Positions 12,934-59,023 of a DNA stretch of 64,000 nt are shown here, one piece after another. The stretch is from Candidatus Uhrbacteria bacterium (GTDB taxonomy: Bacteria > Patescibacteriota > Patescibacteriia > JACQRZ01). Numbering within the stretch: the stretch's first letter is position 1; every line of letters starts with the position of its first letter. The notes beneath the pieces were generated by a model. That model was not told the origin of the DNA. It saw only the letters and a list, made by a program, of their open reading frames with translations, and did no database searches. The DNA lies in the NCBI GenBank assembly GCA_016188385.1, contig JACPHV010000032.1, positions 5,174-69,173 of the forward strand, in the 5' to 3' direction. The position numbers and the translations under genes are program-made.

Positions 12934-12990
12934 TGAGACTGGATTACATTGAATCGGACATGACCGGGAAGCTATGTTCCACCAGCCTCA
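12934..12990. repeat. MITE-like element, compact copy (motif B only)
   Basis: TGAGACTGG...GACATGACCGGGAAGCTATG...CCAGCCTCA. It shares TIR ends and the TGACCGGGAAGCT core with the other copies. Lies in the 93-bp gap between two minus-strand genes. Confidence 0.5.
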
Positions 12991-13011
12991 ATTAAAACGC
13001 GGCTCACAAGC

Positions 13012-15657
13012 TTATACTGCTGATACAGCTTCGGATAGTTCTTGCGTTTGTATTCTGACATGTTCGCCGTCCGCGTCAATCGTTACGGTATCGCCCTCTT
13101 TGACAGATTTATTGATAAGCTGAAGCGAGAGCGGATTGAGAATAAGGCGCTGGATCGTACGTCGCAAGGGCCTTGCTCCATAGAGCTGGTCAAAACCGCG
13201 TTTTGCAAGCAGCTCGATTAACGACCGCGTAAACGCAATGGTTATCTCGCTTTGCGCGAGCCGTTGTTTCACTTGCTCAAGCTGGATGTCGATGATTTGG
13301 CAGATGTCGCTTTGCGATAGCGGGTGAAAGACAATGATTTCGCTGATGCGGTTTAAAAATTCCGGCTTAAAATGCTTCTTTAGCTGGTCATGGATCTTTT
13401 CCGACATCTCCTTTTCGTTGATAAGCGTCCGATCTTTGTCATCTTCCGAAAATCCGATACTGCCTTCTCGAATCATATCGCCACCCAGATTTGATGTCAT
13501 AATGATGATCGTATTTTTGAAATTCACCTTTCGTCCTTTGGCATCCGTCACGTTTCCGTCATCAAGGATTTGCAGAAGAGTGTTAAAAATCTCCGGATGG
13601 GCTTTCTCAATTTCATCAAACAATATGACACTGTAAGGTTTACGCCGCACTTTTTCCGTGAGTTGACCCCCTTCATCATACCCGACGTACCCCGGGGGAG
13701 AGCCGATCAAGCGAGAGACAGCGTGTTTTTCGCCGTATTCGCTCATATCAATTCTGACCAGCGCGTTTTCATCATTAAACATGAAACTCGCAAGACTCTT
13801 TGCAAGTTCAGTTTTTCCCACGCCCGTCGGGCCGATAAAAAGAAACGTTCCGATCGGCTGTCTTTCATCCGACAAGCCCGCGCGTGATCGACGCAATGCA
13901 TCCGCGACCGCCTGCACCGCTTCGTGCTGTCCGATCACTCGCTTCTGCAACACAGTTTCCGCTTTTTGCAATTTTTCCGCTTCGCTTTCCAAAATTTTTG
14001 ATGCCTGAATACCGGTCCAGCGCGCTATGACTCCGGCAATATCTTCTTCCGTCACCTCTTCTTTCAAGAATCGGTGTTTTTTTTGGAGGTTCGCAAGTTT
14101 CGAAGCTGTTTTTTTGAGCTCCTTTTCAAGCTCGGGTATTTTACCATAGCGGATTTCCGCTACGCGCGAGAGATCTACGCGGCGTTCCGCGATATCCGCT
14201 TCCTGCTTGAGGCGTTCAACCTGTTCTCGAATGGATCGAATCTGGGAGATCAATTCTTTTTCATTTTTCCAATCCATTTCCAATTTTCGCGCATCTTCCT
14301 GCAGCTCCGCTAATTCCTTTTCCAGCGCTTTAAGGCGAGCCTTTGATTTTTTGTCACCCTCTTTTTGCAGCGCCTGCTTTTCGATCTCAAGCGTAAGCAC
14401 GCGCCGTTTAAGATTATCAAGCTCTACCGGCTGGCTGTCGATCTGCAGACGTATCGCGCTTGTTGCTTCATCGATGAGGTCGATGGCCTTATCCGGAAGA
14501 AATCGATCAGAGATATAACGATGTGAAAGGTGCGCGGCAGCGACAATCGCCGCGTCAGTAATGCGCACTCCATGATGCACTTCGTACTTTTCTTTAATCC
14601 CGCGCAAGATCGCAATGGTGTTTTCCACGGTAGGTTCATTGACCAGGACAGGCTGGAATCGACGTTCGAACGCAGGGTCGCGTTCAATGTGTTTTTGGTA
14701 TTCTTTGAGCGTTGTTGCACCGATCGTTCGCAGCTCGCCTCGCGCCAATGCCGGTTTGAGCATATTGGAGGCGTCAATCGCTCCCTCGGCGCCACCCGCA
14801 CCGATCACGGTATGGAGTTCGTCGATGAATAGGATGATGTGTCCCGCTGACTGCGTGATTTCTTTAAGTACCGCTTTAAGGCGGTCTTCGAAATCGCCGC
14901 GGAATTTTGTGCCCGCTATGATCGATCCAAGGTCAAGCGACAGGATCTCTTTATCCTTAAGCGATTCAGGCACGTCACCGGACACTATGCGTTGCGCCAA
15001 CCCTTCTACGATTGCCGTCTTGCCGACACCGGCTTCGCCGATGAGTACCGGGTTATTTTTCGTCCTTCGTGAAAGCACTTGCATAACGCGCCGTATCTCC
15101 TCGTCGCGGCCGATGATCGGATCGAGTTTTTCTTGGCGCGCTTGATCCGTCAGATTAACAGCGTATTTGCTTAGCGCCTGATACTTGCTTTCCGGATCAG
15201 GGTCGGTGACGCGATGCGAGCCGCGAAGCTGCGCGAGGATTTTTAACACGATATCATAATTCACCTTGAATTCCGTCAGGACATCTTGTGCCATGGACGG
15301 AGTTTGAATCAATGAAAGGAAAAGGTGCTCGGTGCTGATATATTCATCACCGATTTTTTTTGCCTCTTTGCTCGCACTGTTGAGTACGAGCGCAAGTTCT
15401 TTTGAAATATAAATCTGACCAATTTGGCCGCCGGTAATACGCGGAAGGAATTGCAGCTCTTCCTCGACTCGCTGCTCAAGAAGATTTGCCGGTATTTCCA
15501 ATTTGTGCAGCAAACCCGACACTACGCTCTCCGGTTGGCGGATAAGCGACAAGAGTAAATGAAGAGGGGAGAGTTCCTGATGGTTGCGCTCGGCGGTGAG
15601 CATATGTGCCGCTTGGAGAGCTTCTTGCGCGCGAGTGGTGAAGTTATTATTGAGCAT
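13012..15657 (-). CDS. clpB: ATP-dependent chaperone ClpB
   Basis: Clp N-domain and two AAA modules ([18 protein letters not shown]; [15 protein letters not shown]) separated by a long coiled-coil middle domain. Confidence 0.92.
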
Positions 15658-15731
15658 ACGTTAAGGTGATATTACATACATAGTATAGCATAGTGAGTCC
15701 GATCTCGCGAGTACTTGCTACGTCTGATAAT

Positions 15732-15806
15732 TGAGACCGTAGCAAAATATCAGGCGTTACGAGTCTTCCGACTCCTTTCTCGGGAAGCTATTTTTTACAG
15801 TTTCAG
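15732..15806. repeat. MITE-like element, compact copy (motif A + motif B, internally deleted)
   Basis: TGAGACCGTAGCAAAATATCAGGCGTTAC-GAGTCTTCCGACTCCTTTC-TCGGGAAGCTATTTTTTACAGTTTCA. It matches the ends of the full element at 15909-16091 in opposite orientation. Confidence 0.55.
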
Positions 15807-15908
15807 TTTGTTTCTGTCTCAATTGGCAATCCGGATCATTGATTGCTAACATACCTTATCCTGATTGAATGTCAAGCCACGCGGAATTTCTTTTCAAATC
15901 AATCAATG

Positions 15909-16091
15909 TTGTCTAGAATGAGACTATAGAAAAATAGCTTCCCGGTCATTTCCGATTCAATTTCGTTCCAAAAAGGATGATGGACGCGAAGGAATACTGG
16001 AGTATTCCGACAAGTTCAGCGCCTTTTGGGGATGAAATTGGGCGGAAAGGAGCCGGAAGAAAGTAACGTCTGATATTTTGCTACAGTCTCA
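15909..16091. repeat. MITE-like element, full-length copy (reverse orientation)
   Basis: TIRs ATGAGACTATAGAAAAATA / TATTTTGCTACAGTCTCAT. The interior is near-identical to the reverse complement of the copy at 58844-59023 (AGCTTCCCGGTCATTTCCGATTCAATTTCGTTCCAAAAAGGATGAT...GGCGGAAAGGAGCCGGAAGAAA). Confidence 0.75.
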
Positions 16092-16101
16092 TACTACATC
16101 C

Positions 16102-16848
16102 ATGGATCACATACCTACTGTCACCATAGCAGGAGTGCGCGTAGATGATATTGAATTGGCGAGTCTTTATGATGTGCTCGAGAGCTGGCTGCAGGGTACC
16201 GGCAGAGTGCGTCATATCGTCACGGTGAATCCGGAATATATAATGGAAGCTCGGAAGAATAAGGCGTTCCGAAAGTGTCTCGAAAGATCCGCGCTTGCTC
16301 TTGCCGATGGGGTTGGAATCGTATACGCTGCTCGATATCTATACGGACAGAAGATTCAGCGCATCACCGGCGTGGACGCCGTTCTCACTCTTGCTGATCT
16401 TTGCGCGCGCGCAAGCAAAGGCATCTATCTTCTCGGCGCGGATACAGGAGTTGCGAAGCGAGCGGCCGACGAGCTGGAAAAAAGATTTCCGGGATTGCGC
16501 GTCTCCGGGTCCGAAGCGGGGCCGTTCAATCAGCCGGCGATTCTCGATCGAGATATATGTGAACGCATTACCACATCAGGAGCACATGTGTTGTTAGTGG
16601 CATTCGGTTCTCCAAAGCAGGACCTTTGGATCGCGCGTCACATGGATTTTTTGCCAGGTGTCAGGATCGCGATAGGCGTGGGCGGTACGTTTGACTACCT
16701 CGCGGGTGTGGTGCGGCGAGCGCCCGGCATCATCCGAACACTCGGATTTGAGTGGCTCTATCGGCTTATGCGACAACCGCACAGATGGCGCAGGATTTTT
16801 ACTGCCATCGCTCGTTTTCCCCTCACCGTTATTTTTTCTAAAAAATGA
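16102..16848 (+). CDS. WecB/TagA/CpsF-family glycosyltransferase
   Basis: VTVNPEYIMEARKNKAFRKCLERSALALADGVGIVYAARYL is typical of WecG/TagA. The ATG at 16102 is preferred over the TTG at 16078, which lies inside the repeat TIR. Confidence 0.75.
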   Translation: MDHIPTVTIAGVRVDDIELASLYDVLESWLQGTGRVRHIVTVNPEYIMEARKNKAFRKCLERSALALADGVGIVYAARYLYGQKIQRITGVDAVLTLADLCARASKGIYLLGADTGVAKRAADELEKRFPGLRVSGSEAGPFNQPAILDRDICERITTSGAHVLLVAFGSPKQDLWIARHMDFLPGVRIAIGVGGTFDYLAGVVRRAPGIIRTLGFEWLYRLMRQPHRWRRIFTAIARFPLTVIFSKK

Positions 16849-17252
16849 TTCTTTTTATCGATACGGCCCTGCGTGATGCATCCCTCATCATCTTGAAGGA
16901 TGGAGAAGATGAGTATATTCGGAAATTAACATCTGTGAATGTCCATCAGCCTGATGCCTTGCGCGAGATCGATCGTGTGTTCAAAAAAGCGCAATCGAAT
17001 CCGAAACGGCTTACCGGTATCGCCGTCGTGGTTGGCCCCGGGCAATTTTCTTCCTTGCGTACCGGTATCGCGATTGCCAATGCGTTTGGGTACGCATTGC
17101 GGATCCCCGTGGTGGGCATAGCAAAGGAAGATGCGGGTACAAGAAGCGAGTTTATCGCGGCCGGGCGATCAAAATTAAGAAGAAAAAAAACATTTTTTCC
17201 CATAATGCCTGAATATGGAAAAGAACCAAACATTACATCTCCAAAAAAATGA
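16845..17252 (+). CDS. tsaB: TsaB (YeaZ)-like t6A biosynthesis protein, short form (135 aa)
   Basis: MILFIDTA...AVVVGPGQFSSLRTGIAIANAFGYALRIPVVGI matches the TsaB GPGSFTGLRIG core. Only the N-terminal half is present. Confidence 0.6.
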   Translation: MILFIDTALRDASLIILKDGEDEYIRKLTSVNVHQPDALREIDRVFKKAQSNPKRLTGIAVVVGPGQFSSLRTGIAIANAFGYALRIPVVGIAKEDAGTRSEFIAAGRSKLRRKKTFFPIMPEYGKEPNITSPKK

Positions 17253-18508
17253 AAGACTTATTTGACACTGCGAAATCATTCAATGTACACGCGCCACTCG
17301 CAGATCGCATGCGCCCGCAGACGCTGGATGATATTGTCGGACAAGAGCATATTCTCGGTGAGGGCAAGGTGCTGCGTTCGTTAATCGAGAATGACGCGTT
17401 GCATTCGATCATATTATGGGGTCCGCCTGGAGTCGGTAAAACTACGATTGCGTCTGTCATCGCGCGTGTCACCGGCGCGCGATTCGTTTCAATCAGCGCG
17501 GTGAACACTGGATTGAAGGAGGCGCGGGAAATAATCGAGAGAGCGCGCGATACGCTCAAGCTCAACAAGAAGCGCACCATTTTGTTTATTGATGAGATAC
17601 ATCGTTTTAATAAGGCGCAGCAAGATGCGTTTCTGCCCGCGGTGGAAAACGGGACAATAGTGTTAATCGGCGCTACTACAGAAAATCCATCGTTTGAAGT
17701 GAACTCCGCGCTTCTTTCCCGATCACGCGTGTTTGTGCTTGAAGCGCATACCATGAAGTCGCTTTCAAACATTATTGACCGCGCGTTGTCGGATGCCGAG
17801 AATGGTCTCGGCGCGCAATCTATCCAAATCAGCGAAGATGAGCGCGCCACGCTTACCGCGCTTGCCAATGGTGACGCGCGTTCGCTTCTCAACATTTTTG
17901 ATATTGCTGTGCAGATCACGCCTATGGTGGAAGGCTTCAAACGTATTACAAAGGAGATACTTGAGCAAGCCGCGCATACCAAGCTGTTGCGATATGACGC
18001 GAAAGGGGAGGAACACTACAATGTGATTTCAGCATTGATAAAAAGTATGCGCAATTCTGATCCTGATGCTGCTCTTTATTGGCTTGCGCGCATGATAGAC
18101 GCGGGCGAGGACCCGCTCTTTATCGCTCGCCGCATGGTGATTTTCGCGTCTGAAGATGTAGGCCTGGCAGACGCGCAGGCATTGACATTGGCCGTATCCG
18201 CATTTCAGGCAGTACATGCTATCGGCATGCCGGAAGGCCGTATTATTCTTGGTCATACCGCGGCATATCTTGCTCGGGCGGCAAAAAACAATTCGGCATA
18301 TCGCGGCATCGAATCTGCGCTCGCTGACGCGAAGGAGTACGGAAATCTTTCCGTTCCGTTGCATCTTCGCAATGCCGTTACGGGCTTGATGAAGGATCTT
18401 GGTTACGGCAAAGGGTATCAGTACGCGCATGATCATGAAGATGCCCAAACAGATATGCAATGCCTGCCTGACGAACTTGCTGGCAAGAAATATCTCAAGA
18501 ATGATTGA
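17249..18508 (+). CDS. rarA: Replication-associated recombination protein A (AAA+ ATPase)
   Basis: DDIVGQEHILGEG...ILWGPPGVGKTTIASVIA; MgsA/RarA C-terminal domain. Confidence 0.9.
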   Translation: MKDLFDTAKSFNVHAPLADRMRPQTLDDIVGQEHILGEGKVLRSLIENDALHSIILWGPPGVGKTTIASVIARVTGARFVSISAVNTGLKEAREIIERARDTLKLNKKRTILFIDEIHRFNKAQQDAFLPAVENGTIVLIGATTENPSFEVNSALLSRSRVFVLEAHTMKSLSNIIDRALSDAENGLGAQSIQISEDERATLTALANGDARSLLNIFDIAVQITPMVEGFKRITKEILEQAAHTKLLRYDAKGEEHYNVISALIKSMRNSDPDAALYWLARMIDAGEDPLFIARRMVIFASEDVGLADAQALTLAVSAFQAVHAIGMPEGRIILGHTAAYLARAAKNNSAYRGIESALADAKEYGNLSVPLHLRNAVTGLMKDLGYGKGYQYAHDHEDAQTDMQCLPDELAGKKYLKND

Positions 18509-18552
18509 TCTGAAACAAATTGACACCTTTCCGCACAAGCCCTGTTTCATAA

Positions 18553-18650
18553 TGAGACTGTAGAAAAATAGCTTCCCGGTCATATTTGATCTCAAACGGC
18601 GCCAAAATGAGCCGGAAGAAAGTATCGCCTGATATTTTTCTATAGTCTCA
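18553..18650. repeat. MITE-like element, medium copy with perfect TIRs
   Basis: ATGAGACTGTAGAAAAATAGCTTCCCGGTCA...GAGCCGGAAGAAAG...TATTTTTCTATAGTCTCAAT. The terminal inverted repeat is a perfect 18 bp. Confidence 0.7.
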
Positions 18651-18669
18651 ATATATGCGGATTGTTTCC

Positions 18670-18712
18670 TTAATATAAAGACCGTTCACGGTAGTGACGG
18701 TCTTTATATTAA
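18670..18712 (+). terminator. 16-bp perfect stem-loop downstream of rarA
   Basis: TTAATATAAAGACCGT-tcacggtagtg-ACGGTCTTTATATTAA; no clear U-tract follows. Confidence 0.35.
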
Positions 18713-18731
18713 GTTATTCACAGAATAATGG

Positions 18732-18760
18732 TTGCCGAGAACATAAAAGTGGAGTATAAT
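18732..18760 (+). promoter_or_regulatory. Sigma-70-type promoter of the dcw cluster (TTGCCG-N17-TATAAT)
   Basis: TTGCCG at 18732-18737, a 17-nt spacer and a perfect TATAAT at 18755-18760, lying ~280 nt upstream of mraZ. Confidence 0.5.
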
Positions 18761-18769
18761 GGTCTATAC

Positions 18770-18794
18770 GTGGTGAAAAGTGGGAAAAAGTGGG
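18770..18794 (+). promoter_or_regulatory. MraZ operator: three GTGG(G/T) boxes with 10-bp phasing
   Basis: GTGGTgaaaaGTGGGaaaaaGTGGGgataa directly downstream of the -10 box, with a further GTGGA at 18749-18753. This matches the known MraZ-box architecture of direct GTGGG repeats with 5-nt spacers. Confidence 0.55.
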
Positions 18795-19035
18795 GATAAC
18801 TCGGGTTTTTTGTGCATAACCTGAAATCCCACAAAAAGTAATACAAATTCCACTCATAAGGCCACTTTTTAAAAAGCATCCCCATGCTTGTCGTGTCCTT
18901 CATTGTCCTCACGTATGGTGAGGTACTGGCAACCTTTGTCCGCTCCTCGCTCTTTCGAGCGAATGCACAGGAGCGGACAAATTGGTTTGCCGCACGTAAA
19001 GATTGATACGAAACAGGGAGTAGGATTTCTTACCA

Positions 19036-19467
19036 ATGTTTATCGGAGAATACTACCATTCACTTGATACCAAAGGCCGTCTCGCGATACCGGTAAAATT
19101 TCGAGTTGAGCTGGAGAAAGGAGCAGTGGTGACCCGCGGGTTTGACCATTGTCTTTTTCTTTATCCGATGAAAGGATGGAATGCTTTAGCTGAAAAAATT
19201 GCCGCCTTGCCATTTAGTCAAGCAAATAGCCGTGCCTTCAGCCGCTTGCTGTTGGCCGGGGCAATGGATGTCCAGATTGATAAACAAGGGAGGGTTATTC
19301 TTCCTGATTATCTGCGCCAGTATGGCGGTTTATCTAAGAAAGTCGTTGTTGCCGGATTATATACTCGGCTGGAAATCTGGGACGAAGCATCATGGAAATC
19401 ATATAAAGCATGCGCGGAAAGCGACAGCAACGAAATCGCAGAAACACTGGGAGAGCTCGGCGTATGA
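19036..19467 (+). CDS. mraZ: Transcriptional regulator MraZ
   Basis: MFIGEYYHSLDTKGRLAIPVKFR...; duplicated MraZ domain (the second copy reads DKQGRVILP). Confidence 0.9.
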   Translation: MFIGEYYHSLDTKGRLAIPVKFRVELEKGAVVTRGFDHCLFLYPMKGWNALAEKIAALPFSQANSRAFSRLLLAGAMDVQIDKQGRVILPDYLRQYGGLSKKVVVAGLYTRLEIWDEASWKSYKACAESDSNEIAETLGELGV

Positions 19468-19476
19468 AGAGCTCCT

Positions 19477-20364: not shown

Positions 20365-20374
20365 CCACTCAATT

Positions 20375-20737: not shown

Positions 20738-20783
20738 CAGCGCCGCCGAGTTGTGAGAGTATCCGTGAAAAGTCAGTGGGGGG

Positions 20784-28186: not shown

Positions 28187-30870
28187 TGCAAAGATTTCCG
28201 GAACAACATGTGAGCGTCCGAGGAACTCATTCCGAAGGGAAAACGGCAAGGCAAGAATGGCGTGCGACGAGGTTTTATCAAGTACCGGCTGCCTTTGCTC
28301 TGTGTGCGTTAGCCATTGGCATGGCGCCGGTCCAGGCAGATGCCGCGACACTATCGCGCGATGAACTTTTTGCCGGTGAATATATTACAGTCACAGGCGA
28401 GAACTTCGGCCCGCCCAATCTCTCCACAAGCTATCTGTGCTTTTTTGATAACACTCACTGCGTGAGCGCCACGAGTTTTGGCGAACGCGCCGGATGGGAG
28501 TGGAGCGATACCGCCATTACGGGACAAGTGCCCAATGAAGTACCCATCAGCGGCGATATTATTGTATACGTTCAAGCAAAAAAAGAAGAATGTTTTCCGA
28601 ATCTTGGGTACTGCGAAGTCTCTACATTTCTTGAAGCGCGCGCGCGAGCATCCTATACCATCCTCCCGAAAATTTTGGATGTAAATCCGAAGCCTTCGGC
28701 AACGCGAAATCAGACGATTACGATAACCGGCACAGGATTCGGGGACCAGATCGGTGAAGTCCGCCTCGACTCATATCTCGCGGCAATCACCAGCTGGACT
28801 GACGGCAGCATTACTGTTACGCCTCCGGCACAACTTGTCGGGAGCACAAAACAAATCCGTATCACGACCGGAAACGCAAAAAGCGCGACGAGCGATTATC
28901 GGGTCGCTGTCGGCATATCCAACGATGAGTATTCCTACTTGCAGGAATATCTTGAACAAGTCTACGTCAAAGAAGCGTGGGCGCTTGCCGGAACAAACGA
29001 AGTGATCGTTGCCGTCATTGATGACGGCGTGCTGTTGTCGCACCCTGATCTGCAGGGACAGTTTTGGCGCAATACCAAGGAGATTCCCGGCAATGGCATC
29101 GATGATGATTTCAATGGATTCATAGACGACGTGCAAGGGTATAACTTCTTGGATGGAAATACCGACTTGTCTCCTAAAGGCCTTCACGGCACCGCGGTAG
29201 CCGGCATCATAGGCGCCGTGCGCGACAATGCGATCGGTATCGGCGGTATCGTGAAACATGTTAACATCATGCCGCTCTTGGTTGCGGATAGCGACGGCGT
29301 GACGAATTCGCAGATTGTCGACCGCGCGATCAAATACGCGGCGGACCATGGCGCATCGATCATAAATCTAAGCTTTAGCACAAGCGGGGAGGATCAATTC
29401 TTTCCACAACTGGATGCGTCGATCGATTACGCATTCAGCAAAGGAGCCGTGGTTGTCGCCGCGGCAGGCAACGGAGATGTCAAAACGGGAGCGGGGTTGC
29501 ATGTGAATAATTTCCCGCAGAGTCCGGTGTGCAATACGCGACGCGGTACTACAGGGCTCGGTATCGCAGCGCTCGATAATACTGACCGCCCGACCGGAGG
29601 CAACAAAATAGCAACCTGGTCGAATTATGGAAGCAATTGCATTTCTCTCTCCGCTCCAGGCACCCGCCTTTATACCACTACGGCCGATGCATATCAAAAA
29701 GAAGGCAAACTGTATGGCGCGGAAAGCGGAACATCATTCGCAACGCCACTGGTGGCAGGTATCGCTGCGCTTCTGAAAGCAACGTACCCGACTATGACGG
29801 CGACTAATATCATTGACCGTCTGCTTGCCACAGCCGATCCGATTGATGAATATAACCCCGAAAAAGCGGGACACATTGGCAAGCGAATCAATGCTTTTAA
29901 GGCATTGGCGGCCGGCAAACCTATCCCCGCGCTCGTCTCATTTTCACCGCATGAGTTCAATGCGGGAAGTAGGCTTCTCGTGTCACTATCACTCTATGAT
30001 CCTCTCTACTCACTTGTCTTAACTCCGGTGTCAGGAGGCTCTGATATCAGATTTTCTTCCGGAGAAATTACTGTCGTAAATACAACGGAGATTTCGATAG
30101 CTCTTCCGACATCCCTATTACCGGGTTCGTATCGGCTTCGTCTCCTTTCGCCCACCGGGGAAGAAATCAGTTTTCTCTCTGAATCTTTCGTAGTGCCGAT
30201 ACAACTTGTAAGCGATGAATCGACACAATCGAAACAAGAGCCATCGGAACACAGAGCGCAGATCGATGAACCATCCTCGGATATACAGGAACAAAGCGGC
30301 GATCAGCAATCAATGACCGAGAGTCCGATTATCATTGAGAAGGGGGAGACAGTCAGGCCAACATCAGAGATTAAATCGGAGCTCCTGCCGGAAGCCGTCC
30401 CGAATGAAAAAGTCGCCGGTAGCGGATCGCGGTCGGTCGTTACAGACCCAAAAGCAATTTCGCTGATCAATACATTAAAAGGCAGGATTCTTCTCCAGGT
30501 TGAGAGTAAAGGCGAGGCGTGGTATGTACGCCCCGATACCGGTGAACGCGTATTCATGGGGCGGCCGGCTGACGCGTTTCAGCTCATGCGCACGCTCGGC
30601 AAAGGAATCGCAAACGTTGATCTCGAACGTATCCCGGTCATTGGAAGTTCCAAGGCTCCAAGCGTTTCAGAGCTTGCTTTTACAAAAAAGCACGCGGGCA
30701 AGATTTTTATCCAGGTACAAGAAAAAGGCCGCGCGTGGTATGTGCATCCGAAAGAGTTCCGCAGATATTTTCTTGGCCGTCCCGCGGATGCGTTTGAAAT
30801 CATGCGGCGAACCGGACTTGGGATTACAACAAAAGACCTATCGTTGATTCCTATTCAGACTTTTCGTTGA
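28171..30870 (+). CDS. Secreted subtilisin-like (S8) serine protease with two C-terminal copies of the ~55-aa GEAWYV...GRPADAF repeat
   Basis: Catalytic triad context: VAVIDDGV (Asp), HGTAVAGIIG (His), GTSFATPLVAGIAALL (Ser). The C-terminal repeats GRILLQVESKGEAWYVRPDTGERVFMGRPADAFQLMRTLGKGIANVDLERI and GKIFIQVQEKGRAWYVHPKEFRRYFLGRPADAFEIMRRTGLGITTKDLSLI match the repeats of ORF 5522..6388. Confidence 0.85.
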   Translation: MDETVMQRFPEQHVSVRGTHSEGKTARQEWRATRFYQVPAAFALCALAIGMAPVQADAATLSRDELFAGEYITVTGENFGPPNLSTSYLCFFDNTHCVSATSFGERAGWEWSDTAITGQVPNEVPISGDIIVYVQAKKEECFPNLGYCEVSTFLEARARASYTILPKILDVNPKPSATRNQTITITGTGFGDQIGEVRLDSYLAAITSWTDGSITVTPPAQLVGSTKQIRITTGNAKSATSDYRVAVGISNDEYSYLQEYLEQVYVKEAWALAGTNEVIVAVIDDGVLLSHPDLQGQFWRNTKEIPGNGIDDDFNGFIDDVQGYNFLDGNTDLSPKGLHGTAVAGIIGAVRDNAIGIGGIVKHVNIMPLLVADSDGVTNSQIVDRAIKYAADHGASIINLSFSTSGEDQFFPQLDASIDYAFSKGAVVVAAAGNGDVKTGAGLHVNNFPQSPVCNTRRGTTGLGIAALDNTDRPTGGNKIATWSNYGSNCISLSAPGTRLYTTTADAYQKEGKLYGAESGTSFATPLVAGIAALLKATYPTMTATNIIDRLLATADPIDEYNPEKAGHIGKRINAFKALAAGKPIPALVSFSPHEFNAGSRLLVSLSLYDPLYSLVLTPVSGGSDIRFSSGEITVVNTTEISIALPTSLLPGSYRLRLLSPTGEEISFLSESFVVPIQLVSDESTQSKQEPSEHRAQIDEPSSDIQEQSGDQQSMTESPIIIEKGETVRPTSEIKSELLPEAVPNEKVAGSGSRSVVTDPKAISLINTLKGRILLQVESKGEAWYVRPDTGERVFMGRPADAFQLMRTLGKGIANVDLERIPVIGSSKAPSVSELAFTKKHAGKIFIQVQEKGRAWYVHPKEFRRYFLGRPADAFEIMRRTGLGITTKDLSLIPIQTFR

Positions 30871-34384: not shown

Positions 34385-34411
34385 TTAGCAATCAAGAGAT
34401 CAGATTGCTAA
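34385..34411 (+). promoter_or_regulatory. CIRCE-like HrcA operator (TTAGCAATC-N9-GATTGCTAA)
   Basis: Perfect 9-bp inverted repeat with a 9-nt spacer, ending 1 nt before the hrcA start codon. It resembles the CIRCE consensus TTAGCACTC-N9-GAGTGCTAA. Confidence 0.75.
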
Positions 34412-34412
34412 T

Positions 34413-35129
34413 ATGCTCGATGAACGCAAGATTACCTTAGTTCAGTATATGGTTGAATGCTATATCGCGTCTGCCCAGCCGGTGGCCTCGATTATGCTTG
34501 TCAGGAAATATCAGCTATCATACAGTCCTGCCACCGTACGAAACGAATTCGCGTCTTTGGAAGACGAAGGATATGTACGGCAGCCCCACGCGTCATCCGG
34601 TCGCATACCGACAGAACGGGCATATCAGCTCTACCTTGAACAGGTGCAGCCAAAGCGTATTCCCCGTTCGGTTGCCCAACGGCTCGAAAGCGCTTGGGCG
34701 CGACAGACATCCCATCAATTTGACCGTTATTGCCAACTTGGCAGAGTACTTTCCGATGAAGCGGAGGAATTCGTTTTTGTGTCGCTTCAAACAGGCGAAC
34801 TTTCTTGCACGGGCTTTGCCTACCTGTCACAAAAACCTGAATTTCTTGACCAGAAGTTTGCATCCGTGGTCACCGAAGCGATCGACCATCTTCATGAATT
34901 AGTGGAACGGCTTTATACCGCGGCAACCGGCGAAGCGCAGATATTGATCGGAAGAAATGATGTTTTTTCAGGAGCGTGCGGCAGTATATTCAGTACATTT
35001 GATCTGGAAGACAACTCCCGCGGCATGATCGGAATCATCGGTCCTATGAGAATGAATTACGGATACAATATCGGATTAATAAAAACCGCGTGCGAACTCG
35101 TCTCGACATCATCTGCGAATAATTTATAA
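34413..35129 (+). CDS. hrcA: Heat-inducible transcription repressor HrcA (short, 238 aa)
   Basis: The N-terminal winged helix (VQYMVECYIASAQPVASIMLVRKY...SPATVRNEFASLEDEGYVRQPHASSGRIPTERAYQLYL) matches HrcA. Lies upstream of grpE-dnaK-dnaJ. Confidence 0.8.
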   Translation: MLDERKITLVQYMVECYIASAQPVASIMLVRKYQLSYSPATVRNEFASLEDEGYVRQPHASSGRIPTERAYQLYLEQVQPKRIPRSVAQRLESAWARQTSHQFDRYCQLGRVLSDEAEEFVFVSLQTGELSCTGFAYLSQKPEFLDQKFASVVTEAIDHLHELVERLYTAATGEAQILIGRNDVFSGACGSIFSTFDLEDNSRGMIGIIGPMRMNYGYNIGLIKTACELVSTSSANNL

Positions 35130-38865: not shown

Positions 38866-38930
38866 TGAGACCGTAGCACCATAGCTATTAAATCGGGAAT
38901 GACCGAGAAGCTCTGTCGCACCAGTCTCAT
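38866..38930. repeat. MITE-like element, compact copy (motif B only)
   Basis: ATGAGACCGTAGCACC...GGAATGACCGAGAAGCTCTGTCGCACCAGTCTCAT. Lies immediately upstream of the T4CP-like operon. Confidence 0.5.
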
Positions 38931-42656: not shown

Positions 42657-43505
42657 ATGGCATACCCTACGTTTTCTTATGATGAAGACACCACGAATGA
42701 CCCGGAGCTTTCGTTTGATGAGATCTTGGGCCAAGAGATGGCGCTTCCGGATGAATATTCCGCGGAAGATATTACTGTTGAGTCGGAGCCGGAAAGCGAA
42801 TTCCCGATCACTGACGAACCCCTATTATATGGCTCGCAATTATCAGCGACGGATGAAAACACGACAGCGGAGACGCATTCTGATCTCGTCTCCGAGAACA
42901 TCACCGGCCAAGACGCAGAGCAGATGAGCAGATCACGCCTTCTGTTGCTCAAGAAGGAGTTAGGCGAGATACGCGAAAGGATCGACCGCGCGCTTGAGCT
43001 TGTTGAAGCGCAGATACCGGTGAAGGCCGGGAAGGATGAAGATGATCAGGACGAATTCATACGAAAGATAGATTCACTGCTTGCACGTCAGGAAAAGAAA
43101 GGCGACAGCGCCGCCGCACCCGAAGAAAGCCGGATTATTGAAGGCGTGTTTGATGGCCAGCATATGATCGGTTCGGACGGCAGTCAGTATGCAGTGCCCC
43201 AAAATTACGCGTCAAAGTCAAAGCTTGTGGAAGGTGATGCTCTCAAACTCACCATCACTGAATCAGGTTCTTTTCTTTATAAGCAGATTGGTCCGATAGA
43301 GAGAGTCCGTCTTGTCGGCACGCTTGAGGCAGATGTTCATCATGAATCATATTCAGTCAAATTCGAGGATCGTTCATGGCGTATTCTTGCCGCATGCGCA
43401 ACATTCTTTCGAGGCGCGCAGGGCGATGAAGTAGTATTCCTTGTGCCAAAAGATCGAGCCAGCACATGGGCGGCTGTGGAGAATATCATTAAGAGGGTAT
43501 CGTAA
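42657..43505 (+). CDS. Hypothetical protein: acidic disordered N-terminus, coiled coil, C-terminal beta-rich (possibly OB-like) domain
   Basis: D/E-rich first ~90 aa. Coiled coil LLLLKKELGEIRERIDRALELVEAQ. The C-terminal ~110 aa is beta-rich (VEGDALKLTITESGSFLY...YSVKFEDRSWRIL...GDEVVFLVP). Confidence 0.45.
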   Translation: MAYPTFSYDEDTTNDPELSFDEILGQEMALPDEYSAEDITVESEPESEFPITDEPLLYGSQLSATDENTTAETHSDLVSENITGQDAEQMSRSRLLLLKKELGEIRERIDRALELVEAQIPVKAGKDEDDQDEFIRKIDSLLARQEKKGDSAAAPEESRIIEGVFDGQHMIGSDGSQYAVPQNYASKSKLVEGDALKLTITESGSFLYKQIGPIERVRLVGTLEADVHHESYSVKFEDRSWRILAACATFFRGAQGDEVVFLVPKDRASTWAAVENIIKRVS

Positions 43506-43676
43506 AGACTTTGCGCAATAACAGTATGTATTTCTTCCGGCTCCTTTCTGCCCAATTTCCCCCAGAAATTGCGCTGAACTCCTCAAAATATCTCGATATT
43601 CTTACTCATTCATCATCAATTTCTGGACGAAATTTGATCAGAAATGACCAGGAAGCTATTTTGCAAAAGGTCTTAT
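43505..43676. repeat. MITE-like element, full-length diverged copy (forward orientation)
   Basis: GTATTTCTTCCGGCTCCTTTCTGCCCAATTTCC...AGAAATGACCAGGAAGCTATTTTGCAAAAGGTCTTAT. The right end overlaps the dnaX ATG and the left end abuts the stop of ORF 42657..43505. Confidence 0.7.
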
Positions 43677-53683: not shown

Positions 53684-55377
53684 ATCTTTTTTTTGAACTG
53701 ACAATCATAGTCGGCGTCGCAGCCGTGATCTCCGTGATCATGCGCTTGCTTCGTCAGCCGCTCATCATCGGGTATATCTTCACCGGTTTGCTCATAGGTC
53801 CGTTTGTATGGAATATATTGCAATCCGTAGAAGTTTTTTCTTTGTTCAGCGAGATCGGCATCGCGATTTTACTCTTTACCGTAGGATTGAATCTTAATCC
53901 GCGCGTCATCAAAGAATTTGGGCGCGTGTCATTGGTGACCGGCATCGGGCAGGTACTCATTACATCTGTCGTTGGATATGCGATTTGCATTGCTCTGGGC
54001 TTCGATCCGGCAACATCATTTTATCTCGGAGTAGCGCTTGCATTCAGCAGCACGATCATTATCTTGAAATTGATTTCCGACAAGGGTGATCTTGAAAAGC
54101 TCTACGCGAAAATCTCGATAGGATTTCTGCTCGTGCAGGATTTTATTGTCATTCTTCTGCTGTTTTTCATCCCCCTGTTTTCACGAGATACCGCGGATTT
54201 CAGAGCGATTGCCCCCTTGATTGGCATGGGATTAGGCTTGTTTGCCGCAATCATTATCATCACCCGTTACATCTTGCCTCGGATTGCCGCTTTTTTGTCC
54301 TCTTCGCTTGAATTGTTGTTTCTATTCGCGGTCGCGTGGGGATTTGGGATCGCTTCGCTTTTTAAGGGCGCGGGCTTTTCTCTGGAGAGCGGGGCACTCA
54401 TTGCCGGTGTCGCGCTTTCAACTCTGGGATTTCGGCATGAGGTGAGCGCGCGCATGATGCCGCTTCGAGATTTTTTCATCGTTCTGTTTTTTGTCATGCT
54501 GGGCGCGCAGATGCATCTGGGAGAGCTGATACCATTAGCGAGCGCCGCTCTTTTGCTTTCGGCTTTTGTGCTCATCGGCAATCCCATTATCCTTATGGCA
54601 ATCATGGGGATGTTCGGGTATCGTAAGCGCACCAGCCTCCAGACAGGCTTCACCGTGGCCCAGATCAGCGAATTCTCTCTTATATTCGTAGCTATGGGAG
54701 TCGCGTATCAGCATATTGGCATTCAAGCTCTTTCGCTCATTACGTTAGTCGGTTTGATTACCATCTTCGGCTCCTCCTATCTTGTCACCTATTCTGACGC
54801 GATATACCGTCTGCTTGAACCTTATCTAGGGATTTTTGAACGAAAGAACGCGAAAGAAACTCAAGTTCAAGCACATCCGTATCAGGCGATATTGTTCGGA
54901 TGCAATAGGATTGGAACTGATTTCTTAAACGCCTTTCGGGTTATGGGCAAAGATTTTCTCGTCATCGACCATAATCCCGAGATCATCACGCAATTACAGA
55001 GTAAACATGCGAATCACACGTACGGTGATGCTTCCAATCTTGATTTTTTGTCTGAACTCGATTATTCAGCTCTTGATATCGCAGTGTCTACCATACCGGA
55101 TGACCAGACCAATCAGCTTATCAATCGCATGATTCGCGCCCGTAAGCCGGAAGCAATTTTCATCTGTATCGCGCATCAGATCGATCACGCGCTTTCGGAT
55201 TATGAGCAAGGAGTGGATTATGTGATTATGCCTCACTTTCTTGGCGGACACTACGCGGCGCAATTGGTGATTGATCTTGACGGGAGACGCTCTGAATATG
55301 AAAATCTCAAGAATGATCATATCCGACAGCTCAACTTTCGTATCAATGAGGGACATGAGCATCCGGTCAATGGCTAA
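53680..55377 (+). CDS. Cation:proton antiporter (CPA2/Kef-type) with C-terminal RCK/TrkA-N domain
   Basis: Na+/H+ exchanger-type TM core (12 helices). Rossmann-like ILFGCNRIGTDFLNAF...FLVIDHNPE. Confidence 0.8.
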   Translation: MNLFFELTIIVGVAAVISVIMRLLRQPLIIGYIFTGLLIGPFVWNILQSVEVFSLFSEIGIAILLFTVGLNLNPRVIKEFGRVSLVTGIGQVLITSVVGYAICIALGFDPATSFYLGVALAFSSTIIILKLISDKGDLEKLYAKISIGFLLVQDFIVILLLFFIPLFSRDTADFRAIAPLIGMGLGLFAAIIIITRYILPRIAAFLSSSLELLFLFAVAWGFGIASLFKGAGFSLESGALIAGVALSTLGFRHEVSARMMPLRDFFIVLFFVMLGAQMHLGELIPLASAALLLSAFVLIGNPIILMAIMGMFGYRKRTSLQTGFTVAQISEFSLIFVAMGVAYQHIGIQALSLITLVGLITIFGSSYLVTYSDAIYRLLEPYLGIFERKNAKETQVQAHPYQAILFGCNRIGTDFLNAFRVMGKDFLVIDHNPEIITQLQSKHANHTYGDASNLDFLSELDYSALDIAVSTIPDDQTNQLINRMIRARKPEAIFICIAHQIDHALSDYEQGVDYVIMPHFLGGHYAAQLVIDLDGRRSEYENLKNDHIRQLNFRINEGHEHPVNG

Positions 55378-55440
55378 ACCGGTTTAGCCATTGAATTCGA
55401 CACGAAAAATATCAAAGGAGATATTTAAACATTCCAAGTA

Positions 55441-56970
55441 ATGAGTACATCATACCGCAAGCCTGTTGTTCTCGTCGTGCTCGACGGATGGGGCTATCGC
55501 GCAGAGACTGAACACAACGCAATCGCACAGGCAATAACCCCGAATCTTGACGCATTGTTTGCCCGATATCCTCACTCTTTGCTGGATGCCAGCGGCCCTG
55601 CCATAGGATTGCCGCAAGGACAAGCGGGGACAAGCGAGATCGGCCATCTTACGATTGGCGCAGGCACGCTTATTGATACGGATTTGGTGCGTATCACCAA
55701 AGCAATGCATGATGGTCATTTTGAGACGAACGATGCGTTTTGTACGGTATTTGCGCATGTTAAGACTCATGATTCCACGCTCCATATTCTTGGACTTGTG
55801 AGTCCCGGCGGGATTCATAGCCACAGCTCGCACCTTAACGGGATATTGCGCGCGGCAAAAAAAGCGGGTATTTCCAAAATCGCCATTCATGCGTTTATCG
55901 ATGGCAGAGATACTCCGCCGCAAAGCGCGAAAGGGTATCTCGCGGAGCTCGAGCACCTGCTTGAGGAATTAGAAATAGGTTTTATTGCTACCGTATCCGG
56001 CCGGTTTTATGCCATGGACCGCGACCACAATTGGCATCGAATAAAAAAGGCGGAAGATGCTATTTTTTACGGCACCTCGGATACTACGCATACTGCTCGA
56101 CCGTCTGAAGTCATTGACGCGATGTATCGGCAAGGTCATGTTGATGAGCATATTGAGCCGATCGTGTTTGTCGATGATAACGGCAAGGCCTACATGATGG
56201 AACACAGCGACGGCATTATTTTTATGAATTTTCGTTCGGATCGCGCGCGTATGCTTTCCAGCAGGATCGTGGACTGCCATGAAGATAAGAACTTGTGCTT
56301 CGTCACGATGACTTCTCATGGCAAGAACGTAAAATCATTGGTCGCATTTTCAGGCGCAGGCGTGCATACAACGCTCGCGACCGAATTATCCCGAGCAGGT
56401 TTACGACAGGTGCATATCGCGGAGACTGAAAAATACGCTCACGCGACATATTTTTTGAATGGAGGAAATGAAGAGCCTCATGAAGGCGAGGAACATATCC
56501 TTGTAGAAAGCAGAAAAGATATCCGCACTCACGATCAAGCGCCGGAGATGAGAGCCTCGGAGATTACTGATAAGGCGATAGAGCAAATCAATCAGGGAAT
56601 CGATTTCGTATTTATTAATTACGCGAACGCGGACATGGTGGCTCATACCGCGAATTTTGCCGCAACGATCCGCGCGGTGGAAGTAATCGATGCGGAGATC
56701 GGAAGGCTCTCATCATGCATAGCGGACTCGGGTGGTATATTCATTCTTACCGCGGACCATGGAAACGCGGAGGTTGGAGTTGATCCACAGAGCGGAGTTC
56801 TCCATACTGCTCATACGATAAACCCTGTTCCGTTTCTTATAGCTGCCGATGGGTATGGGGTGAGACGCGATGGTACGCTTGCCGATGTTGCCCCAACTGT
56901 GTTAACAGTACTTGGAGTGCCGATCCCGCCATCCATGACAGGGATTTCACTGCTAAGTAATCCACAGTAG
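55441..56970 (+). CDS. gpmI: 2,3-bisphosphoglycerate-independent phosphoglycerate mutase
   Basis: N-terminal VVLVVLDGWGYR and metal-binding regions typical of iPGM. Confidence 0.9.
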   Translation: MSTSYRKPVVLVVLDGWGYRAETEHNAIAQAITPNLDALFARYPHSLLDASGPAIGLPQGQAGTSEIGHLTIGAGTLIDTDLVRITKAMHDGHFETNDAFCTVFAHVKTHDSTLHILGLVSPGGIHSHSSHLNGILRAAKKAGISKIAIHAFIDGRDTPPQSAKGYLAELEHLLEELEIGFIATVSGRFYAMDRDHNWHRIKKAEDAIFYGTSDTTHTARPSEVIDAMYRQGHVDEHIEPIVFVDDNGKAYMMEHSDGIIFMNFRSDRARMLSSRIVDCHEDKNLCFVTMTSHGKNVKSLVAFSGAGVHTTLATELSRAGLRQVHIAETEKYAHATYFLNGGNEEPHEGEEHILVESRKDIRTHDQAPEMRASEITDKAIEQINQGIDFVFINYANADMVAHTANFAATIRAVEVIDAEIGRLSSCIADSGGIFILTADHGNAEVGVDPQSGVLHTAHTINPVPFLIAADGYGVRRDGTLADVAPTVLTVLGVPIPPSMTGISLLSNPQ

Positions 56971-57029
56971 TATTTTTTTTATCGTGATATAATCTCTCTG
57001 AATTCACAATCTGTGGGTAACCTATAATT

Positions 57030-58532
57030 ATGAGACACCGAGCTCTATCACTCAAAAAACCGATTACAGATCAGAAGGCGGCTTTCGTCTTGTGCCTTTT
57101 TGAAGGTGCGGCTTGCGACAAGCATCCATTGTTTCAATTCCTTGCCCCAAGGGACAGAGAATATTTGTCATCTGCCTCAAAGGAATGGAAGTCGGAATTG
57201 TATGCGTCAGATCTGTTTCGCATGCCTTCATCAGGGCGATCCGTGCTGATGTTCGGGTTGGGGACGAAAGAAAAGTGGAATGCCCGTTTCGCGGAACGAA
57301 GCATGAGATCGGTGGTCATGTCTGCGAAAAAGAGGCGTTTGTCAAAGCTCGTGGTAGTGGCGAATGATTTTGCTCTTTCTGGAGAAGGGGAATCAACGAG
57401 GGCAGAGCATTGCGCGGCAAATGCGGAAATAGGCGCCTATGAATTCAATACTTTTCTCACAGCGCCGGATGGGGGGTGGCCTTCGATCAAAGAAATTCTG
57501 TATGCCGCTCATGAGATGGAGGGAATGAATCACGCTTTATCAGTGGGTTCATTGATCGGTGAGCGGGTGAACGAGGTACGAGAGTTGGCAAATACTCCCG
57601 GAGGGCGCATGACGCCAAAATTGCTCGCGGCTCACGCAAAGAAAAACGGGAAGAAATACGGATTTTTAGTTAAAGCGCTCGGTGAGCAGCACATGAAAAA
57701 GCTCGGTATGGGCGGAGTGCTTGGGGTATCGAGCGGGAGCGCGGAAGAAGCGCAGTTTATTATCATGGAATACCATGGGACTAAGAAAAAAGGAAACCCT
57801 TTGGTGTTCATAGGCAAGGGTATTACATTTGATAGCGGGGGACTGCAGATCAAGCCCGACAGGTATATGGATGAGATGCATATGGATATGAGCGGCGGAG
57901 CAAGTGTTATTGGCGCGTTGAGCGCGATAGCAGCATTGAAGCTGCCACTGAATTGCGTAGGCATAGTTCCGGCGGCGGAAAATATGCCATCAGGATCGAG
58001 CTATCGGCCCGGGGATGTACTTAAGACTCTATCGGGAAAAACAGTAGAAGTCGGACACACAGACGCGGAAGGCCGAGTGGTGCTTACTGATGCGTTAACG
58101 TATGCCGAGAGATACGAGCCGTCTCTCGTTGTTGATGTCGCGACATTGACCGGCGCGGCGACAGTTGTTATGGGACGCTATGCATCACTCGTTATGTCTC
58201 CACAAAAGAAATGCGCTGATTTTATGCTTTCCTGCGGAGATACGAGCGGAGATACGCTGTGGCAGTTGCCGCTCTGGGATGACTATGAATCTCACATCAA
58301 GGGATATACGGGAGACGTGACGAACAACAGCCGGCACAGAGAGGCCGGGACAATCATCGGCGGCATGTTCTTATATCAGTTTGCAAAAAAATTTCCAGCC
58401 TGGGCTCATGTTGATATTGCTGCAACCATGACGGGGAAAGACGACCTGTTCTTGTCGCGAGGCGCGAGCGGTATTGGTACGAGGCTTCTTATTCAGATTG
58501 CCAGAAGTTATCACAATTTTACTAATTCATAA
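57030..58532 (+). CDS. pepA: Leucyl aminopeptidase (M17)
   Basis: M17 signature (VEVGHTDAEGRVVLTDAL) and the metal-binding block ITFDSGG. Confidence 0.88.
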   Translation: MRHRALSLKKPITDQKAAFVLCLFEGAACDKHPLFQFLAPRDREYLSSASKEWKSELYASDLFRMPSSGRSVLMFGLGTKEKWNARFAERSMRSVVMSAKKRRLSKLVVVANDFALSGEGESTRAEHCAANAEIGAYEFNTFLTAPDGGWPSIKEILYAAHEMEGMNHALSVGSLIGERVNEVRELANTPGGRMTPKLLAAHAKKNGKKYGFLVKALGEQHMKKLGMGGVLGVSSGSAEEAQFIIMEYHGTKKKGNPLVFIGKGITFDSGGLQIKPDRYMDEMHMDMSGGASVIGALSAIAALKLPLNCVGIVPAAENMPSGSSYRPGDVLKTLSGKTVEVGHTDAEGRVVLTDALTYAERYEPSLVVDVATLTGAATVVMGRYASLVMSPQKKCADFMLSCGDTSGDTLWQLPLWDDYESHIKGYTGDVTNNSRHREAGTIIGGMFLYQFAKKFPAWAHVDIAATMTGKDDLFLSRGASGIGTRLLIQIARSYHNFTNS

Positions 58533-58555
58533 CGCGATACGTTCGCGGGAATTCT

Positions 58556-58750
58556 ATGGACTCCACTTATGTCTGTCCGGAATGTGGCCAGGAATACGAT
58601 GAGCCTGGCGTGTGTGATTCTTGTCAGGTAGATCTTATCGAAGACGGCGGTGATAAAGATCTTGAATTCGATGGCACGGACGAACTTCAGGAGGATCAAG
58701 GCACCGGAGATTCGTTCGACGCCGGCAATGACGAGGAAGATTTTTCGTGA
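58556..58750 (+). CDS. Small zinc-ribbon protein with acidic tail (64 aa)
   Basis: CPECGQ...CDSCQ (CxxC-N14-CxxC); D/E-rich C-terminus. Confidence 0.5.
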   Translation: MDSTYVCPECGQEYDEPGVCDSCQVDLIEDGGDKDLEFDGTDELQEDQGTGDSFDAGNDEEDFS

Positions 58751-58778
58751 GGATAAACGGTCGGTATAAAGTGAGACC

Positions 58779-58815
58779 AAAGAACTCTTGAGTCATTCAG
58801 GAGTTCTTTGATATT
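58779..58815 (+). terminator. Rho-independent terminator candidate
   Basis: AAGAACTC-ttgagtcattcag-GAGTTCTT followed by a T-rich TGATATT. Confidence 0.4.
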
Positions 58816-58843
58816 GCGCTCATGATTATTGAATGGTATAGTA

Positions 58844-59023
58844 TAGAGACCTCTGCAAAAGTCCATTTATGTATTTCTTCCGGCTCCTTTCCGCCCAATT
58901 TCGCCCCAATAAGATCCTAAACTTGTCGGAATACTCCAGTATTCCTTCGCGTTTATCATCCTTTTTGGAACGAAATTGAATCGGAAATGACCGGGAAGCT
59001 CTTTTTCAGAAGTCTCTATAGAC
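58844..59023. repeat. MITE-like element, full-length copy (forward orientation)
   Basis: GTATTTCTTCCGGCTCCTTTCCGCCCAATTTCG...GGAAATGACCGGGAAGCTCTTTTTCAGAAGTCTCTATAGAC. Near-identical to the reverse complement of 15909-16091. Confidence 0.75.

Follow-up and report, generated by a model that had tools for sequence, protein, structure and literature searches.

Bacteria of the candidate phyla radiation (CPR; Patescibacteria) have very small, gene-dense genomes. Among the short repeats described from other bacteria, the Correia, ERIC and RUP elements target TA, and the Rickettsia palindromic elements (RPEs), approximately 100–150 bp long, are typically in-frame insertions within coding genes and can lie at or inside gene ends. 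MITEs (miniature inverted-repeat transposable elements) are defined as non-coding elements of <500 bp with terminal inverted repeats (TIRs) of approximately 4–30 bp and, at least in young copies, flanking direct repeats; they are dispersed as AT-rich intergenic copies, show movement and have a related autonomous insertion sequence (IS) or transposase that acts in trans (PMC10969869). In the literature searched, we found no account of MITE-type repeats in CPR bacteria. Here, we describe a family of short inverted repeats in a 64-kb stretch of DNA from a Candidatus Uhrbacteria genome (assembly GCA_016188385.1, contig JACPHV010000032.1, positions 5,174 to 69,173; hereafter the window). Its copies have moved between sites, the full copies fold as hairpins along their whole length, and the repeats are probably non-autonomous mobile MITE-like foldback elements of Candidatus Uhrbacteria.

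The window holds one repeat family of exactly seven copies, three full (172–175 bp) and four deleted (57–98 bp). A sequence-only reading had grouped the seven intervals into one family, and BLASTN (E = 1e-53 to 1e-4), a repeat search and an nhmmer profile agree on this; the profile, built from 11 full copies, gives seven matches in the window and no further ones. With boundaries read off the sequence directly, the full copies are c58 (58844–59018, plus strand, 175 bp), which ends in TAGAGAC...GTCTCTA and is flanked by TA on both sides, c15.9 (15919–16091, minus strand, 173 bp) and c43 (43504–43675, plus strand, 172 bp). The first two had been called near-identical over approximately 150 bp in opposite orientation; span and orientation hold, and the actual identity is 89% over 154 bp (BLASTN, E = 1e-53). 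By BLASTN, c43 is 78–79% identical to both (E = 1e-24 to 1e-26), and in the pairwise comparison of copies it is the outlier and the most diverged, at 66–71% identity to the rest. The deleted copies are c18 (18553–18650, minus strand, 98 bp), in which the termini, a conserved bulge and two blocks, the L-block and the R-block, are kept and the centre is replaced, c15.7 (15732–15805, plus strand, 74 bp), c38.8 (38866–38929, plus strand, 64 bp) and c12.9 (12934–12990, plus strand, 57 bp), which consists of the left terminus and the right third. All four match both ends of the full copies (BLASTN, E = 1e-4 to 1e-12), and the relations recovered among the seven intervals by the repeat search of the window agree with BLASTN. 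In the multiple alignment every short copy retains both termini and the central block is gone, which bears out the earlier suggestion that they are internal-deletion derivatives, with both ends kept and the hairpin tip lost. The 18-bp TIRs of c18, first described as perfect, do form an inverted repeat, with 17 of 18 positions matching and a right end that reads GTCTCAA, not GTCTCAT. Across the window, the 18-nt terminus TGAGACTGTAGAAAAATA occurs five times at ≤3 mismatches compared with 0.06 expected, and the internal cores CTTCCGGCTCCTTTC and TGACCGGGAAGCT, already pointed out in the sequence-only reading, are common to the copies in the alignment. We call orientation A the strand that reads TGAGAC, the ATATCAG bulge, CTTCCGGCTCC, GACCGGGAAGCT and GTCTCA in that order, and orientation B its complement. 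Directly after c15.7, at 15807–15821, stands a second partial right terminus, TTTGTTTCTGTCTCA, which extends that copy to 15821 (90 bp in all) and is either an end duplication or the remnant of another copy.

Eight further full copies lie outside the window, two in the Uhrbacteria metagenome-assembled genome (MAG) JACQSA01 (L001 and L003) and six on metagenome contigs (L004–L009). In syntenic relatives, six of the seven window sites are empty (c12.9, c15.7, c15.9, c38.8, c43 and c58). The loci L010 and L012, with WecG homologues 66% and 63% identical to that of the window, are collinear with approximately 6–27 kb of it and carry no copy anywhere there. The spacer between the clpB stop and the next gene, where c12.9 lies, is approximately 20–30 nt in L010 and L012 compared with 93 nt in the window, and the clpB–WecG spacer is 171 nt (L010) and 167 nt (L012) compared with 445 nt in the window, where it contains both c15.7 and c15.9. 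At the c15.9 site itself the empty sequences read ..CTAGAATACGCCT|ATG in L010 and ..CTAGAATGCGACT|ATG in L012, and the window reads ..CTAGAA[TGAGAC..GTCTCA]TACTACATCC|ATG. L007 is collinear with the window from 30.9 to 44.8 kb; there, the spacer from dnaJ to the next gene (the c38.8 site) is 59 nt long, with a terminator, a promoter and no element, and the c43 site is a 17-nt spacer followed by the identical dnaX N-terminus, MSLYRKYRP. The c58 site is empty in L041, L042 and L043 (M17 peptidase 79–83% identical), in which the intergenic region aligns on both sides. The reciprocal case is the copy of L007 itself, which lies between a VirD4-like gene and the next open reading frame (ORF), a position occupied in the window by a 79-nt spacer without the element. 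Copies have been gained independently at different intergenic sites of related genomes, which shows that the family is mobile; presence and absence in relatives therefore speak for independent insertions and not for a conserved regulatory element. Together with inverted-repeat termini and no conserved coding capacity, the mobility seen at orthologous sites agrees with the first assignment of the family as a non-autonomous MITE-like inverted-repeat element, and the intergenic position of all seven window copies stands as described.

The full unit is approximately 173 bp long, AT-rich (35–46% GC) and non-coding, with TGAGAC...GTCTCA ends. Beyond the pair of TIRs seen at first, foldback pairing extends over the full length of the element, and this structure is constrained. 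Pairing starts in the terminal inverted repeats, TGAGACYRTAGMAAAATA and its complement, and continues through the entire element, which is self-complementary over its whole length except for a conserved one-sided bulge of approximately 14 nt, which reads ATATCAGnnGTnnCTTT in orientation A, and for some small internal loops. Folding, proposed at the outset as a check, gives hairpins for the full copies taken singly (−43 to −78 kcal/mol, z = −4 to −8), and a single copy folded as DNA reaches −37.6 kcal/mol (z = −6.2). The consensus fold of the 11 full copies has 62 pairs and −55.9 kcal/mol in orientation B, compared with 48 pairs and −25.7 kcal/mol in orientation A. In the B structure 94.0% of the pair cells of these copies are standard pairs, compared with 37–52% when the partners are slid by 1–3 columns. 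Double-sided changes are found at 20 of the 62 pairs, compared with 3–10 for slid partners, and none of 500 shuffles attains these figures. At least six double changes are private, and there are many transversion flips, for example, UA<->AU and CG<->GC. The hairpin is thus preserved by compensatory changes, and we conclude that it matters for the element's own propagation or maintenance, be it as single-stranded DNA, RNA or a cruciform. The double changes and flips suggest selection in propagating lineages or palindrome-templated DNA correction, rather than stepwise RNA-type evolution via G·U. The best-conserved stretches are subterminal or internal, namely TTTCTTCCGGCTC, CCAATTT/AAATT, the tip GGAATAC..GTATTCC, CATCATC and GACCGGGAAGCT. 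Of the four short copies, three retain a hairpin that their termini close (z = −2.5 to −5.9), among them c18 (−35.6 kcal/mol, z = −5.9) and c38.8 (z = −3.4); c15.7 is the only copy with a fold no better than shuffles (z = −0.9).

Two other identities suggested by motifs in the element were rejected. The only recurrent ORF is a small one in orientation B (MMxxxEYWSIPTS..., starting from ATGATG), and it stops early in c43, L003 and L007. A K-turn or C/D box, suggested by UGAUGA and by CUGA near the tip, fails in that the motifs are on opposite strands.

If the elements are non-autonomous, an enzyme from another locus of the genome would move their copies in trans. This enzyme would recognize both the termini and the strongly conserved subterminal blocks CTTCCGGCTCC and GACCGGGAAGCT, and would insert the element where the target is A/T-rich and often a palindrome, TA or AT for instance; deletions of the tip may then have arisen because long palindromes are unstable in replication. 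As for the mobilizing chemistry, the chance may be a little less than even that a DDE enzyme of the cut-and-paste type targets TA here, as in Correia, RUP and ERIC, and a REPIN/IS200-like mechanism, in which one folded single strand is handled and the target is not duplicated, would be possible, although unlikely. The flanks of 15 copies, with three right boundaries corrected by eye, fit insertion into such sites: the base just outside TGAGAC..GTCTCA is A or T in 30 of 30 flanks, the two outside bases are complementary in 14 of the 15 copies, and 6 of the 15 have TA..TA (c58, L001, L003, L005) or AT..AT (c15.7, L008) flanks. No consistent target motif extends past the adjoining A/T, and a resemblance to −10 boxes or TAGAC is limited to some flanks.

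Several results weigh against MITE-like mobility of this kind. No transposase, reverse transcriptase or HUH gene was found among the approximately 54 ORFs of the window or the 20 copy-adjacent ORFs elsewhere, and no transposase was found in the approximately 130 kb of element-bearing sequence. No longer element bounded by the termini of the family was seen, and no solo termini bracket one. Mobilization in trans is therefore an inference. No pair of copies exceeds 93% identity, and very recent activity is hence not indicated. Conservation is lower at the extreme termini, which vary and covary, than in the internal blocks; such a difference is unusual for a DDE enzyme that recognizes TIRs. Target-site duplication cannot be demonstrated from TA or AT flanks because both are palindromic, so that a 2-bp duplication is indistinguishable from a longer inverted repeat, and the two alignable empty sites fit a duplication of 0–2 bp. 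At the c58 site the relatives have a −10 box, 3 nt and CATAG where the window has the −10 box, ATA, [GAGAC..GTCTC] and TATAG; the spacing equals that of the relatives exactly and fits a 0-bp duplication. At the c15.9 site, CTAGAAT|ACGCCT becomes CTAGAA[TGAGAC..GTCTCA]TACTAC, which fits 0 bp, or a duplication of AT if the element is GAGAC..GTCTC. That no target duplication is demonstrable leaves room, if not much, for a non-classical single-strand mechanism.

The alternative that survives best builds on such a mechanism. In it, the B strand folds as single-stranded DNA and is moved without target duplication by a single-copy HUH/Y1-type or other non-DDE enzyme, as in REPIN- or IS200-like systems, with the conserved one-sided bulge and the mismatches telling the enzyme which strand it holds. 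We consider this doubtful. A full-length hairpin with common compensatory changes has been reported for REPINs (PMC3116915) and is what we find here. Every full copy folds 9–21 kcal/mol better in B than in A and, among the 73 opposed positions of the B strand, G·U occurs in 59 cells at 17 positions compared with A·C in 11 cells at 6 positions (sign test on positions, approximately 0.017 one-sided). The asymmetric bulge is conserved, the internal blocks are better conserved than the termini, and the empty sites are compatible with zero duplication. The asymmetry is a moderate hint that points to a single defined strand. However, five positions are mostly G·U family-wide, so that much of the G·U excess, most of it at a few ancestral positions, is inherited from the common ancestor, and private one-sided changes are unbiased (4 G·U compared with 3 A·C). 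Near the ends, the GTAG motif is not fixed but variable and covarying, no Y1/HUH gene is seen in the element-bearing sequence (no Y1_Tnp match in any ORF scanned there), and the TA..TA or AT..AT flanks of 6 of the 15 copies look more like the product of a TA-duplicating enzyme. Folded alone, the arms have energies equal to those of shuffles and form no REP-like sub-hairpins, and there is no GC-rich REP core; judged by the definition of REPINs or REP-RAYT systems, the family has the whole-element hairpin with compensatory changes but lacks the two REP palindrome units. The more general idea of a strand-specific foldback transposon, in which some enzyme propagates the folded B strand and inserts it in the middle of A/T palindromes without duplication, instead of a classical DDE-type MITE, strikes us as distinctly unlikely. 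If true, CPR bacteria would have their own, differently built counterpart of REPIN-RAYT-like systems, one that persists and diversifies in streamlined genomes of approximately 1 Mb.

The same strand-specific G·U pattern, and the far better consensus fold of B, could also be read at the RNA level. The hairpin of the B transcript would then be useful to the host and act in cis on neighboring mRNAs, for example, as an RNase III target, a 3'-end stabilizer or a transcriptional insulator, with selection on the RNA keeping the structure even if the DNA still spreads by transposition. In favor of this, copies lie in the leaders or 3' regions of clpB, dnaJ, mgsA, dnaX and ytxH, and the transcripts of Correia and ERIC MITEs are substrates of RNase III and RNase E (PMC10969869). 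Yet we see no orientation bias relative to genes or to the putative replication direction: of the copies flanked by co-directional genes, four have B as the sense strand and four as the antisense strand, and half would thus be transcribed as the weaker A strand. The energy gap between B and A is equal in B-sense and B-antisense copies, which indicates that it was inherited and not selected in place, and the element is missing from relatives that have these genes. Consensus scans for internal promoters and terminators found none that recurs within the element. An intrinsic terminator in particular was rejected, since no terminator-like site coincides with the full copies, which end in ...GTCTCA(T/A) with no T-tract. 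A host-useful RNA is, on this evidence, improbable. That the family is not mobile at all and represents a conserved cis-regulatory RNA, a riboswitch, a small-RNA gene family or integron attC sites is hardly credible and effectively refuted by presence and absence. In its favor are the stable covarying fold, the intergenic location and nested hairpin sizes with a superficial likeness to attC. Against it, orthologous sites are empty in relatives, orientation and neighboring genes are unrelated between copies, there is no Rfam match at gathering or permissive thresholds, and, specifically for attC, the ends are TGAGAC/GTCTCA without RYYYAAC/GTTRRRY core sites, copies occur in both orientations, the window ORFs include no integrase, and the neighbors are housekeeping genes (clpB, dnaJ, dnaX, mraZ-type) rather than cassettes.

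The Rfam searches behind this statement covered the window with Rfam 15 at the gathering score, which returned only two tRNAs, and L001 and L007 at a permissive E-value, which returned a tRNA and a 21-bit chance match (gathering score 86); no riboswitch or other RNA family matches the elements. BLASTN in a distant setting gave no match to the element in plasmid and phage collections, and two pattern scans of viral contigs gave 0 matches and 26 chance seed matches, of which nhmmer confirmed none. The family, which the sequence-only reading did not recognize, thus has no similar sequence in Rfam or in the phage and plasmid collections.

The copies outside the window were found with one right-end pattern; the scan on the JACQSA01 side also gave one chance match. 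By the nhmmer profile, each external locus of 8–14 kb carries one copy, and copy length reaches 193 bp outside the window. Pairwise identities between copies span 66–93% and define genome-specific subfamilies, one formed by L004, L006, L007 and L009, all from one metagenome (87–93% identical), and one by c15.9, L001 and L003 (84–92%), in which the window copy c15.9 and L001 of JACQSA01 are 92% identical. The genes near the external copies are again core genes (polA, rpsB, prfA, gap, trehalose-phosphate synthase, glycosyltransferases and a HAD hydrolase). In L001, the ORF of a HAD-family hydrolase (4864–5511) runs 75 nt into the copy, and its last ~25 residues are encoded by the repeat. L009 contains a 20-nt GC-rich mini-palindrome, CCTGCCTACCGGCAGGCAGG, inside its copy (5747–5766), at the CCGG of the conserved L-block. 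No other length change occurs in the 11 full copies, and the mini-palindrome could represent a second palindromic insertion of very small size or a duplication templated locally. In both L005 (2459–2632) and L007 (2545–2718) a full copy lies just 3' of a VirD4/TrwB-like ATPase gene and in the same orientation. The two contigs are distantly related and differ in the distance from the stop codon and in the downstream gene, and the placement is either an old shared insertion that was long retained or a preferred site. Copy density varies between loci: 5 of the 7 window copies lie within 6 kb (12934–18650), around clpB and the divergent clpB/WecG promoter region, compared with one copy in the syntenic 14-kb stretch of L007 and none in a 20-kb stretch of L010. 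The clustering near clpB could reflect local hopping, a permissive region or chance.

Pfam scans of the approximately 54 window ORFs identify ordinary housekeeping genes, including clpB, a WecG-family transferase, mgsA, mraZ-rsmH-ftsI, hrcA-grpE-dnaK-dnaJ, dnaX, riboflavin genes and an M17 peptidase. Two window proteins are 100% identical to NCBI proteins of Candidatus Uhrbacteria on a contig of 82,427 bp, with MBI2484260.1 as an identical match. Among the window genes, c12.9 lies in the spacer from the clpB stop to the next gene's start, c18 downstream of an mgsA-like gene, c38.8 between dnaJ and a 175-aa ORF, and c15.7 in the clpB 5' leader, where it adjoins a CIRCE-like operator (15823–15849). 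Of two start codons said to be overlapped by copies, that of dnaX is indeed touched, by one base: c43 fills the entire spacer from the TAA (43503–43505) of a 282-aa ORF to the A of the dnaX ATG (43675), and the ribosome-binding region of dnaX (AAAGG) is therefore inside the element. The other overlap does not hold, as c15.9 ends 10 nt 5' of the ATG of the WecG-family glycosyltransferase gene (16102), a start that matches a 248-aa NCBI protein with 100% identity and coverage. In the ytxH promoter, the remaining copy, c58, has entered 3 nt past the conserved −10 box (TATAGT) and, by position, separates this box from its gene. Effects of the copies on the host, as judged from position only, would be real but incidental.

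Some further features of the window stand apart from the repeat family. The CIRCE-like inverted repeat (TTGGCAATCCGGATCATTGATTGCTAA / TTAGCAATCAAGAGATCAGATTGCTAA) lies just 3' of a promoter-like site in the clpB leader (15823–15849) and occurs once more (34385–34412) directly 5' of the hrcA homologue (34413–35129) that heads hrcA-grpE-dnaK-dnaJ. The repeat is kept in L010 and L012 as TTAGCAA-N13-TTGCTAA; it probably serves this lineage as its HrcA operator, and its half-sites are shorter than those of classical CIRCE. In the spacer between c18 and mraZ there are two perfect inverted repeats, at 18669–18713 (17-nt arms, 11-nt loop) and 18935–18981 (13-nt arms, 21-nt loop), which are probably a terminator and a leader structure unrelated to the family. 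A 47-nt coding repeat occurs in four copies that are 68–77% identical (5624–5670, 5831–5877, 30481–30527 and 30697–30743) within two genes, a 288-aa ORF and an 899-aa subtilase/TIG protein; it encodes the peptide motif GRILLQVESKGEAWYV and is a repeated protein module, not a DNA element. Between the M17 peptidase gene and ytxH, at 58556–58750 on the plus strand, a conserved 64-aa ORF, which an 80-aa ORF cutoff easily overlooks, has a CPxCG...CxxC zinc-ribbon motif and an acidic tail; it is found in the same place in L041, L042 and L043, with a conserved hairpin after it.

These results show that even in a CPR genome a mobile element that encodes nothing can become locally dense (seven copies in 64 kb, with five inside 6 kb), with copies that abut the signals of essential genes (the dnaX start, the ytxH promoter and the clpB leader) and a hairpin with a stem of approximately 60 bp that compensatory evolution has kept in several lineages. 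The surprises are the streamlined CPR host, the local density, a structure that is very strongly conserved and biased by strand, and the fact that no target duplication can be demonstrated. For practical purposes, the repeats are strain-typing markers and a source of assembly breaks in Uhrbacteria MAGs, and the strand-asymmetric fold is a handle for finding the mobilizing enzyme.

Compared with known systems, the family shares with RPEs the occurrence of palindromic repeats in a small reduced genome (PMC10969869) and a contact with gene ends, in that c43 touches a stop and a start codon and the HAD-hydrolase ORF of L001 enters the element; it differs in that all seven window copies are intergenic, and there is no sequence relationship. 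REPINs, which are mobilized by RAYTs, are likewise non-autonomous, intergenic and persistent in lineages, and form a whole-element hairpin of single-stranded DNA or RNA with compensatory changes (PMC3116915). However, they consist of two short GC-rich REP palindromes and a spacer (approximately 70–110 bp), whereas the Uhrbacteria element is AT-rich, approximately 173 bp long and devoid of arm sub-hairpins, and no RAYT gene was seen in the element-bearing Uhrbacteria sequence. The closest likeness is to Correia/CREE (Neisseria), ERIC (Enterobacteria, Yersinia) and RUP (Streptococcus pneumoniae), the hairpin MITEs whose general features we take from PMC10969869. No sequence similarity to these was recognized (the element was not compared against a curated IS/MITE library), and the Uhrbacteria family differs in its CPR host, in whole-length pairing with strong covariation, in subterminal blocks that are better conserved than the ends, and in having no demonstrable TA duplication or known parent IS. 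Shared with all three are the length of approximately 100–200 bp, the non-coding sequence, dispersal between genes in both orientations, inverted-repeat ends, A/T flanks, size variants produced by deletion or insertion, predicted stem-loop transcripts, and insertions next to promoters and start codons. By its size (57–193 bp), TIRs, absence of coding capacity, AT-rich intergenic dispersal, stem-loop and mobility, the family agrees in these points with the definition of MITEs, and we class it as a new family of this known general, MITE-like kind.

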